A DNA stretch of 64,000 bases from Escherichia phage EC.P1. Of the stretch, positions 61,879-61,961 are shown piece by piece. The stretch lies in the sequence record PQ657772.1; one strand, given 5' to 3'. The position numbers and the translations under genes are program-made. The notes under the pieces were generated by a model. That model was not told the origin of the DNA. It did no database searches and saw only the letters and a list, made by a program, of their open reading frames with translations. The first letter of the stretch is position 1, and each line of letters begins with the position of its first letter.

Positions 61879-61961
61879 ACTCCTGGACTACTTAACGGGG
61901 TTACTTATTTCGTTCCCCGTCCTGATGTAAAACATTATACGCTTATCGTGATACTTTGCAA
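61879..61961 (-). promoter_or_regulatory. orphan promoter (TTGCAA-16-TATAAT) + hairpin + AGGAG with no ORF behind it
   Basis: Complete cassette but no ATG/GTG/TTG start follows the RBS before the next promoter. Confidence 0.45.

Follow-up and report, generated by a model that had tools for sequence, protein, structure and literature searches.

By sequence comparison, the window (the whole 64-kb stretch of DNA analysed here) is the early region of an Asteriusvirus, a PBECO4/121Q/G17-like jumbo coliphage of approximately 350 kb. The approximately 1.1 kb surrounding the flagged cassette show 90–99.5 per cent identity to Asteriusvirus genomes, phage UE-S1 being the nearest; one record annotates this region as belonging to the direct terminal repeat. 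The genes around the cassette run on the minus strand, on which all features described below lie unless otherwise stated. About 14 copies of one cassette (the flagged unit and about 13 siblings) are found at 55.7–63.5 kb, and their consensus consists of an A/T tract, TTGaCA-16-TATAAT, GTTTTAYATC, a hairpin of the GGGGAA/TTCCCC type, a Shine–Dalgarno (SD) sequence and ATG. The sibling cassettes have hairpin loops of 3–4 nt and, in all of them, an ATG 6–9 nt past the SD. Hexamers of the form TTGCAN at −35 also occur in siblings that drive real genes.

The unit containing the flagged cassette starts with a terminator-like 12-bp hairpin (62098–62071) enclosing the −35 hexamer TTGACT of a promoter, P0 (62091–62063, −10 TATTAT), hairpin and promoter together occupying 62063–62098. 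A conserved segment of about 70 nt, ‘X’ (62062–61990), comes after P0. This succession of terminator hairpin, P0 and X is repeated at 59084 and 56324, where a covariance model scan of the window found no copy of the motif described below, and it is also present upstream of the second copy of the element. P0 forms a cluster of three promoters with P1 and P2, as A1, A2 and A3 do in T7. P1 (61934–61961), which matches the sigma-70 consensus at 10 of 12 positions, is composed of TTGCAA (61961–61956), a 16-nt spacer and TATAAT (61939–61934), and its −35 hexamer is preceded by an A/T-rich UP-like tract, TTTTTAAAAAAGTAC. By analogy with the T7 promoter A1, its start is predicted at the A of ATCAGG (61926). 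P2 (61818–61853 with its A/T tract) combines AAAATAG (61853–61847), TTGACA (61845–61840) and TATAAT (61823–61818), a 12/12 match, and is the proximal promoter of a gene of 91 aa (61509–61784; phrog_14947), of unknown function. In Justusliebigvirus muut, too, this gene stands behind the element.

A sequence-only reading had described the flagged cassette as a promoter, a hairpin with an enlarged loop and a ribosome-binding site with no gene behind them. The three parts are all present on the minus strand (TTGCAA-16-TATAAT, a 14-nt loop and AGGAG at 61884–61880), and the 34 nt between AGGAG and the next promoter indeed contain no ATG, GTG or TTG. The functional unit, however, reaches approximately 61854, beyond the left edge of that reading (61879). 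Delimited by its fold and by identity between contexts, the whole conserved RNA element, ATCAGG…CCTGAT, occupies 61854–61926; its minimum free energy fold has −21 kcal/mol (z=−3.9). In this fold, a closing stem pairs AUCAGG (61926–61921) with CCUGAU (61859–61854) and encloses hairpin H0 (61895–61920), in which ACGGGG (61920–61915) and CCCCGU (61900–61895) flank the 14-nt loop. The near-invariant, single-stranded UAAGUAG follows (61888–61894), its final G opening helix S1 (61874–61888), in which G-U-C (61888–61886) pairs with G-A-C (61876–61874). Helix S2 (61860–61884) joins GGAG (61883–61880), which sits inside AGGAG, to CUCC (61863–61860) across a conserved loop, UAAGACAUACGAAAAA (61879–61864). 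As S1 encloses the 5′ arm of S2, the two helices are modelled as an H-type pseudoknot or as two alternative hairpins. UAAGUAG begins 39 nt past the −10 of P1; the −35 of P2 lies 19 nt past the core, about 8 nt after the end of the element and about 14 nt after the pseudoknot helix.

The flagged segment is not a product of chance, because its siblings all have an ATG, because the core pattern UAAGUAG-N-C … UAAG-N-C-NN-ACGAAAA (30 nt) matches exactly at 61865–61894 with 0.00 matches expected in shuffles, and because a covariance model (R1, from alignment A6 of other phages) matches at 61856–61898 with 60.3 bits (E=7e-15).

Several other identities were considered for the element. No conserved small ORF with a non-canonical start is found: the candidate ATA-CGA-AAA-ACU-CCC-CUG-AUA-AAA-UAG was rejected because its ATA, 6 nt past AGGAG, is ACA in five copies (JP4, PBECO4 c2, EmilieFrey, outra and muut), and 2-nt loop indels break the frames. 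A plus-strand ORF of 30 aa (61803–61895) and a same-strand ORF from an ATG within the −10, annotated in JP4, were also rejected, as loop indels shift the frame and the annotations of the records disagree. Spurious ORFs are annotated over the element in several records. The cassette is present in 6/6 orthologous loci compared and no ORF stands behind AGGAG in any of 44 phage records; an extra 55-aa gene of PBECO4, flanked by short AAAACTAT repeats, lies upstream of P1 and of the cassette. A 5′ stabilizer of the orphan-SD (‘STAB-SD’) type was rejected because homologues do not keep the SD-like sequence.

Searches for known RNAs were equally negative. Rfam 15 gave no gathering-score match in the 64-kb window; in 61700–62150 the best sub-threshold E-value was 3.2, to unrelated families, with no riboswitch family even at E=10. 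No tRNA or tmRNA was found at the element. A terminator scan between P1 and P2 (61846–61933) found none: H0 is without a U-run, and the closing stem is followed by AUAAAAUAGUUUGAC, not by a U-run defining a 3′ end. A stand-alone sRNA gene with an intrinsic terminator was rejected for this reason, there being no terminator-like site between the two promoters. Matches to boxA are at chance level in the window and absent from its early region, and long-range structure of the full P1 leader is not significant (z=−1.2). No second copy was found hidden elsewhere in the window or after T7 A2. On the host side, there was no match in E. coli genomes or plasmids, nor in a pattern search of 185,579 bacterial genomes.

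The T7 A1–A2 interval and covariation of the helices

The promoters A1, A2 and A3 of T7 are textbook knowledge, and T7 is among the most thoroughly studied genomes; its A1–A2 interval is treated as spacer. A weak 37-nt BLAST match of the element (E=0.06) pointed to Pkp-1, a T7-like phage whose left end has CCGGTTAAGTAGTC-AGCCTG-TAAGACATACGAAAAA-CAGGC between two tandem sigma-70 promoters. The corresponding sequence of T7 (NC_001604, approximately 498–626), …CCGG-GGTCAA-CCGG-A-TAAGTAGAC-AGCCTG-ATAAGTCGCACGAAAAA-CAGG-T-ATTGACA, lies between annotated A1 (498) and A2 (626). The window element and the T7 interval have the core UAAGUAG…UAAGNCNNACGAAAA in common: the UAAGUAG flank and the loop UAAGNCNNACGAAAAA match, whereas the arms differ and are nevertheless complementary in each (GCCUG/CAGG(C) in T7, GGAG/CUCC in the window). 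The invariant segments of the T7 form are UAAGUAG and ACGAAAAA.

An exact-pattern scan of IMG/VR returned 32 loci, nearly all in T7-like genomes of 38–45 kb, together with another jumbo phage; a looser pattern gave 96 new loci, of which one was genuine. By BLAST, a 63-nt T7 segment matched 485 phage records, at one place each. These span Studiervirinae, Melnykvirinae and Slopekvirinae, with Escherichia, Klebsiella, Salmonella, Yersinia, Serratia, Pantoea, Cronobacter and Aeromonas as hosts, and none of the T7-type matching records has a feature annotated on the segment. Of 30 distinct sequences, drawn from jumbo, phi92-like and T7-like phages, 29 keep UAAGUAG (L104 has GAAGUAG); the first search pattern demanded this heptamer, and the divergent members found by BLAST keep it too. 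In the literature on the T7 A1–A2 interval and on transcription in Asteriusvirus and Justusliebigvirus that was available to us, in which subscription journals were thinly represented, so that older T7 papers may contain more, we found no description of the motif and no transcript maps of these phages. The element of the window is the form taken in jumbo phages by an early-leader RNA motif that is widespread, occurs in T7 as well and has apparently gone undescribed.

The position of the motif relative to promoters is regular. In nearly all of 52 instances a promoter −10 lies 24–61 nt before the motif and a near-consensus TTGACA 6–47 nt past the core, typically 7 nt in T7-like phages and 19 nt in the jumbo type. 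T7-like early regions have one copy each and none after A2. UE-S1 has three copies within approximately 10 kb, c2, a divergent variant b and c1 (the copy of the window), each of which follows a terminator or terminator-like hairpin; for c1 this is the hairpin containing the P0 −35 (62098–62063). A strong terminator and a promoter of its own precede variant b, which stands directly within a gene's 5′ UTR and has only a weak second promoter. In L041 the motif is without a strong downstream promoter and boxA lies 23 nt past it. Judged from these sequences, what stays the same is that a structured element stands near the beginning of the leader of an early transcription unit. The suggestion that P1 could be a tandem second promoter for 61509–61784 holds as architecture, the P1–P2 distance being 116 bp and that between T7 A1 and A2 128 bp (start-to-start).

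Pairing was counted in a hand-made alignment of 24 sequences and a model-based alignment of 30. The search pattern had left the 5′ arm of S2 free, with the 3′ arm outside the pattern, and S1 was absent from the covariance model. S2 occurs as GGAG/CUCC, GCCUG/CAGGC, GCUUG/CAAGC, CCAG/CUGG and GCCUG/CGGGC with a U-G pair; in the 30 sequences, pair 16–40 is CG 23 times and GC 7 times, pair 17–39 CG 22, GC 7 and UA once, and pair 18–38 UA 19, AU 10 and UG once. The middle pair of S1 (G-N-C/G-N′-C, 3 bp) is A-U in 20, U-A in six, C-G in three and other in one of 30 distinct sequences. Five of eight pairs vary on both sides. Overall, 96.3 per cent of cells are paired against 76.8±1.8 per cent in shuffles (0/500 reach 96.3 per cent), a statistic that overstates independence because the sequences are phylogenetically related and represent approximately five independent stem types; controls with slid partners gave 17–41 per cent of cells paired. 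Taken by themselves, the jumbo-type copies have nearly invariant helices with a single covarying pair, so that the structural proof comes from the T7-like homology over the core of approximately 44 nt.

A hairpin in the position of H0, directly 5′ of UAAGUAG, was found in 15 of 17 versions folded. Its stem differs between lineages (ACGGGG/CCCCGU, CCGG/CCGG, UCCAG/CUGGA, GCCAC/GUGGU, CGGG/CCCG, GGGA/UCCC) with complementarity kept, and G-C pairs are changed to G-U in the G17, 121Q and PBECO4 copies. By inspection, two other jumbo variants have GACG/CGUC and GCGGC/GUCGC in place of AUCAGG/CCUGAU, the closing stem of the jumbo type. The G-U wobbles and the constant upstream promoter argue for an RNA read from the minus strand; one terminal pair of the jumbo type is A·C, which slightly weakens this argument. 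AGGAG, taken in the sequence-only reading for a ribosome-binding site, is replaced by GCCUG or GCCAG in homologues and pairs as part of S2, and on this comparative evidence it is a helix arm, not a ribosome-binding site.

Constraint on the element and cassette exchange

The 88 nt from the P1 −10 to the P2 −35 occur in two copies in every Asteriusvirus genome; each early region of this genus has two identical copies and one divergent copy. The same 88 nt are found at 88–94 per cent identity in unrelated phages of approximately 145 kb: Justusliebigvirus muut, outra and EmilieFrey, and A73, W70, A7_1 and A5-4, which are labelled Vequintavirinae. In an alignment of 21 copies, one core stands before six or more different genes, spread over three groups of phages, the genes behind it falling into four PHROG families of unknown function. 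Each of these copies has a sigma-70 promoter before the core and another after it, the sequence of the upstream promoter differing with the context. The element of approximately 75 nt is 82–100 per cent identical between contexts, while identity is 31–62 per cent in both adjoining promoter spacers, and neither the outer flanks nor the downstream genes are related.

Among ten distinct orthologous loci, 4/73 columns of the element vary (pi 0.016), compared with 37/141 at third positions of codons in the genes on either side (pi 0.104; Fisher p=1.8e-4) and 30/181 columns of other non-coding DNA (p=0.024). The variability of the element is indistinguishable from that of codon positions 1+2 in the same loci. 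This comparison indicates that the element is under purifying selection.

The Justusliebigviruses SD2 and ALITA, which are without the element, have the same P1 and identical upstream DNA, and there the promoter drives an ordinary leader, ATCAGGAC-GGGGGAA-CGG-TTTCCCC-TCCTAAC…ATG, and a gene. The 5′ arm of H0 is common to this leader and to the element, and divergence begins within the hairpin loop; the element therefore has its 5′ end in common with a normal cassette leader. The middle of the element is similar to the region around the SD in the sibling at 57585. In muut, an outra-like upstream region and P1 (98–100 per cent) are joined to a G17-like P2 spacer and gene (99–100 per cent), which places the crossover, on sequence comparison, in the element or at its end. 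The locus of the window itself has two unrelated versions of the P1 spacer among its relatives. The crossover in muut, the swapped P1 spacers and the divergence within the hairpin loop fit, as genome comparisons, the role of a recombination linker; as a side effect, the conserved segment probably provides a stretch of homology at which phages can exchange cassettes, muut being an example.

Proposed function and rival explanations

We hold with high confidence that the flagged cassette is no empty gene cassette but supplies both promoter and body of a conserved leader RNA, non-coding, whose motif is shared with T7 and which, in a promoter–motif–promoter layout, marks the starts of early units. 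The explanation as a whole, mechanism included, seems to us probable. How the element works we infer from its conservation, constraint, covariation and position relative to promoters. In the proposed scheme, the early sigma-70 promoter P1 would fire on host polymerase and transcribe an RNA domain of approximately 75 nt; both the activity of P1 and the ends of the RNA are predictions from the DNA sequence. The nascent RNA would fold into the closing stem, H0, the invariant UAAGUAG and a small pseudoknot with AGGAG as one arm, and P1 transcripts, carrying the folded domain at their 5′ end, would run on through P2 into the early genes. The near-invariant loops could be a surface recognized by some host component that the Enterobacterales have in common, candidate partners being RNA polymerase or Nus factors, the ribosome or protein S1, or an RNase. 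A contact with the host is the most plausible because the single-stranded segments are near-invariant in phages that have common hosts and almost no common genes.

Among the functional readings, we give an even chance to an action in cis, on the element's own transcript or elongation complex, be it terminator read-through, by analogy with HK022 put, or protection of early mRNA. A role in cis is favoured because the copies head transcription units and one of them is a plain 5′ UTR. Against it, P2, with its perfect consensus, would yield transcripts without the element, which is awkward if the element is needed in cis for the downstream gene.

The rival that survives best, although we consider it rather unlikely, is an immediate-early RNA acting in trans, freed when P1 transcripts are processed or when a collision occurs with polymerase bound at P2, and serving as decoy or aptamer for a host or defence protein, for example a nuclease, the toxin of an RNA-antitoxin system or a global RNA-binding protein. 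Such an RNA would be well served by a promoter separate from that of the downstream gene, which the element has in most contexts, and several copies per jumbo genome would raise its dosage; the near-invariance of the loops across unrelated phage families with shared hosts and few shared genes is equally consistent with it. The leading 850 bp or so of the T7 genome enter the cell ahead of the remainder, and the T7 motif lies inside them. Candidate ncRNAs derived from 5′ UTRs are, moreover, known in other virulent phages (PMC10914365). However, no terminator or obvious processing site sets a 3′ end, variant b is an ordinary 5′ UTR, the copies stand specifically at the starts of transcription units, which an RNA acting in trans would not need, and no host RNA and no Rfam family, antitoxin RNAs included, resembles it. 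The earlier suggestion of a short non-coding transcript is borne out as regards a structured non-coding RNA product, while a separate short RNA finds no support, no terminator following the element.

It is improbable that the motif acts at the DNA level, as an UP element or binding site for P2/A2 or through spacing or phasing of tandem polymerases, with the RNA fold being incidental. Almost all instances of the motif do end 6–47 nt before a near-consensus −35, A-tracts occupy UP-subsite positions in T7 A2, and the start-to-start spacings in the window and T7 are similar. Nevertheless, protein-binding sites keep their sequence, whereas the arms of this motif are replaced outright without loss of complementarity, and G-U wobbles occur; the distance from A-tract to −35 varies from approximately 6 to at least 25 nt, and variant b and L041 are without a strong downstream promoter. 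Part of the 3′ A-rich sequence could, in the leader RNA reading, double as UP element of the next promoter.

Still more doubtful is a leader sensing a ligand or condition, in which a pseudoknot with an A-rich third loop, of a topology like that of preQ1-I or SAM-II, would let a metabolite or signalling nucleotide set the fate of the P1 transcript: covarying stems with invariant loop and junction nucleotides are typical of aptamers and the 5′ leader position fits, but the Rfam search at E=10 returned no riboswitch family, no expression platform (terminator or sequestered ribosome-binding site) follows and S1 has only 3 bp. Least credible of all is a neutral relic, a cassette minus its gene, or scar of a deleted gene as first proposed, hitch-hiking with mobile flanking promoters and spread by recombination, for although the 5′ end identical to an ordinary leader as far as the hairpin loop, the likeness to the SD region at 57585, the swapped spacers and the muut recombinant would suit it, purifying selection holds diversity six to seven times below that of synonymous-like sites in adjacent genes, the element is kept before six or more different genes across three groups of phages, the helices, with AGGAG as one arm, covary across phage families, hundreds of T7-like genomes carry the motif once, geneless behind in every instance examined, and recombination of the PeSL type would leave one chimeric cassette (PMC2839356).

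If the preferred reading of a conserved leader RNA is extended, the element may, tentatively, represent a previously unrecognized class of phage immediate-early RNA, found in T7-like, phi92-like, rV5-like and Rak2-like jumbo coliphages, which would be the first structured product of infection, dock on a conserved host machine and spread horizontally as a promoter-flanked RNA cassette. Docking would serve terminator read-through, with RNA polymerase or Nus factors as partner, or act as decoy of a nuclease or defence factor. A covarying, sequence-invariant motif common to T7, jumbo and phi92-like phages, which share almost no genes, suggests a common need in the first seconds of enterobacterial infection, such as read-through, stabilization of early transcripts or neutralization of a host factor. 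At the level of annotation, the ORF calls over the element should be corrected as spurious and the ‘RBS’ read as a helix arm.

Comparison with known systems

Short H-type pseudoknot aptamers such as that of the preQ1-I riboswitch resemble the motif in their short first helix, a second helix from the loop to the 3′ tail, an A-rich connecting loop and a length of approximately 35–40 nt; unlike them, the motif matches no Rfam riboswitch, its first helix has 3 bp and it has no expression platform. In virulent phages of Pseudomonas, ONT-cappable-seq detected ncRNA candidates derived from 5′ UTRs, conserved within genera, of unknown function and with premature 3′ ends (PMC10914365). Both these and the flagged motif are structured leader RNAs, but the latter crosses phage families and is defined by its sequence.

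As regards leader RNAs with a defined action, the put RNA of HK022 is a structured RNA of approximately 70 nt just past the early promoters, which acts without a phage protein and makes polymerase resistant to terminators in cis. The motif is like put, nut and rrn boxA in being a structured RNA that heads long early units and that might need no phage protein for its action, and in L041 it lies 23 nt upstream of boxA. The window, in contrast, is without boxA, and antitermination is hypothetical here, the analogy extending to the leader position.

The closest parallel to the cassettes as such is found in the PeSLs of T4-type phages, which accompany densely arrayed short early genes and combine a strong sigma-70 promoter, an AT-rich tract, a stem-loop with G/C runs and an SD (PMC2839356, PMC4122927). 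[quoted passage not shown] PeSL-like traits of our locus are the strong sigma-70 promoter with an AT-rich tract and the signs of exchange, namely the P1 spacer swaps, muut, the divergence in the hairpin loop and the PBECO4 indel; the terminator hairpin over the P0 −35 (62098–62071) has the classic PeSL layout. In the ordinary cassettes, by contrast, the stem-loop lies in the 5′ UTR past the start site and has no U-tract. The flagged H0, at about +7 to +32 of the P1 transcript, has no U-run and is followed by no SD or start codon; the flagged sequence is conserved far beyond the needs of a linker, and PeSLs are defined in T4-like phages. Cassette shuffling of the PeSL kind thus appears to cross phage families and to carry RNA payloads besides genes.

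The T7 early region remains the nearest counterpart of the element itself. The two differ in their stems (GCCUG/CAGG in T7, GGAG/CUCC in the window) and in the loop of H0, which has 6 nt in T7 and 14 nt in the window; the jumbo type has a closing stem in addition, and its distance to the −35 is longer by 12 nt. The single early operon of T7 carries one copy, the jumbo phage three, and in the window the motif, unlike that of T7, follows the second of three promoters. In both, strong tandem sigma-70 promoters stand 116–128 bp apart with no gene between them, and a small hairpin lies immediately 5′ of UAAGUAG. The heptamer is followed in both by the G-N-C/G-N′-C helix, the second helix and the loop UAAGNCNNACGAAAAA, ending just before the next −35, and even the initial transcribed sequence of T7, AUCGAGAGGG…, resembles the cassette leaders of the window.

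Gene cassettes joined at or near the element

Justusliebigvirus muut carries the window's 91-aa gene and its predicted promoter P2 (L008, 1434-1925), with 95-100% nucleotide identity to Asteriusvirus, and the junction of this Asteriusvirus-like block with muut's own upstream region lies at the element, the conserved leader RNA. This identity, together with the position of the junction, indicates at the sequence level a recent transfer of a gene cassette between two unrelated phage genera, Justusliebigvirus and Asteriusvirus. In PBECO4 (L003, 621-1163), comparison with window positions 62109-61785 reveals 226 additional nt, which hold a 55-aa gene with its own promoter-like sequence. 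The insertion site is located just upstream of the predicted promoter P1 and is flanked by short direct repeats AAAACTAT; judged by its sequence, the insert represents a clear-cut cassette indel.

Further copies of the motif were found relative to c1, the copy present in the window. The second, identical copy (c2) lies approximately 10 kb upstream of c1, and a third, divergent copy in UE-S1 (variant b; L157, 16147-16400) lies approximately 7 kb upstream of c1, past the right edge of the window; both are outside the 64-kb window. The third copy has the stem CCAG/CUGG and the closing stem GACG/CGUC, lacks the H0 hairpin and is placed in the 5' UTR of UES1_237, directly after a strong terminator.

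A repeated hairpin-promoter unit and its annotation

A repeated unit occurs on the minus strand of the window at 62098-61990, 59091-58990 and 56331-56200, and also at L006:440-640. It consists of a 12-bp terminator-like hairpin with the -35 box inside (AAAGGGATTGACTCCGGTCAGTCCCTTT), followed by TATTAT and a conserved segment, X, which reads AGCCCAYMGGGTGC…TGTATC; in the unit upstream of c2, X contains a long inverted repeat. The unit is similar to PeSL, the promoter-early stem-loop of T4-type phages, and X may be a second leader of the non-coding kind, or else a terminator that has degenerated.

Short hypothetical CDSs overlapping the element or X are annotated in GenBank (JP4_CDS0265 at L019:699-794; L001:729-818; and, on the opposite strand, L020:739-831). 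Because the strand and frame of these calls vary from genome to genome across several records, they are probably spurious calls on non-coding RNA.

T7-like instances and ordinary early-gene cassettes

In one T7-like metagenomic contig (L041:4109-4190), a boxA (CGCTCTTTAACAA) follows 23 nt after the motif, here with the stem CCAG/CUGG, an order of hairpin then boxA reminiscent of the rrn and nut antitermination leaders. In most T7-like instances the H0 loop is 6 nt long, RGUCAA (e.g. L024:157-172), and its GUCAA is complementary to UUGAC in the -35 box of the next promoter, just 3' of the pseudoknot. The two stretches could be in tertiary contact, or the match could be a coincidence arising from the promoter sequence, which is itself constrained at the -35 box.

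Approximately 14 cassettes, each comprising a promoter, a 5'-UTR hairpin and an SD, occupy the minus strand of the window between 55700 and 63500. Their hairpins begin approximately 10 nt from the 5' end and have no U-tract, and the arms covary from copy to copy (GGGGAA/TTCCCC, GGGAGAA/TTCTCCC, CGGGGGAA/TTCTCCCG). Cassettes of this type are also present in Justusliebigvirus and A73/A7_1. The leaders, which begin ATCGAGAGGG…, resemble the start of the transcript from A1, an early promoter of T7.
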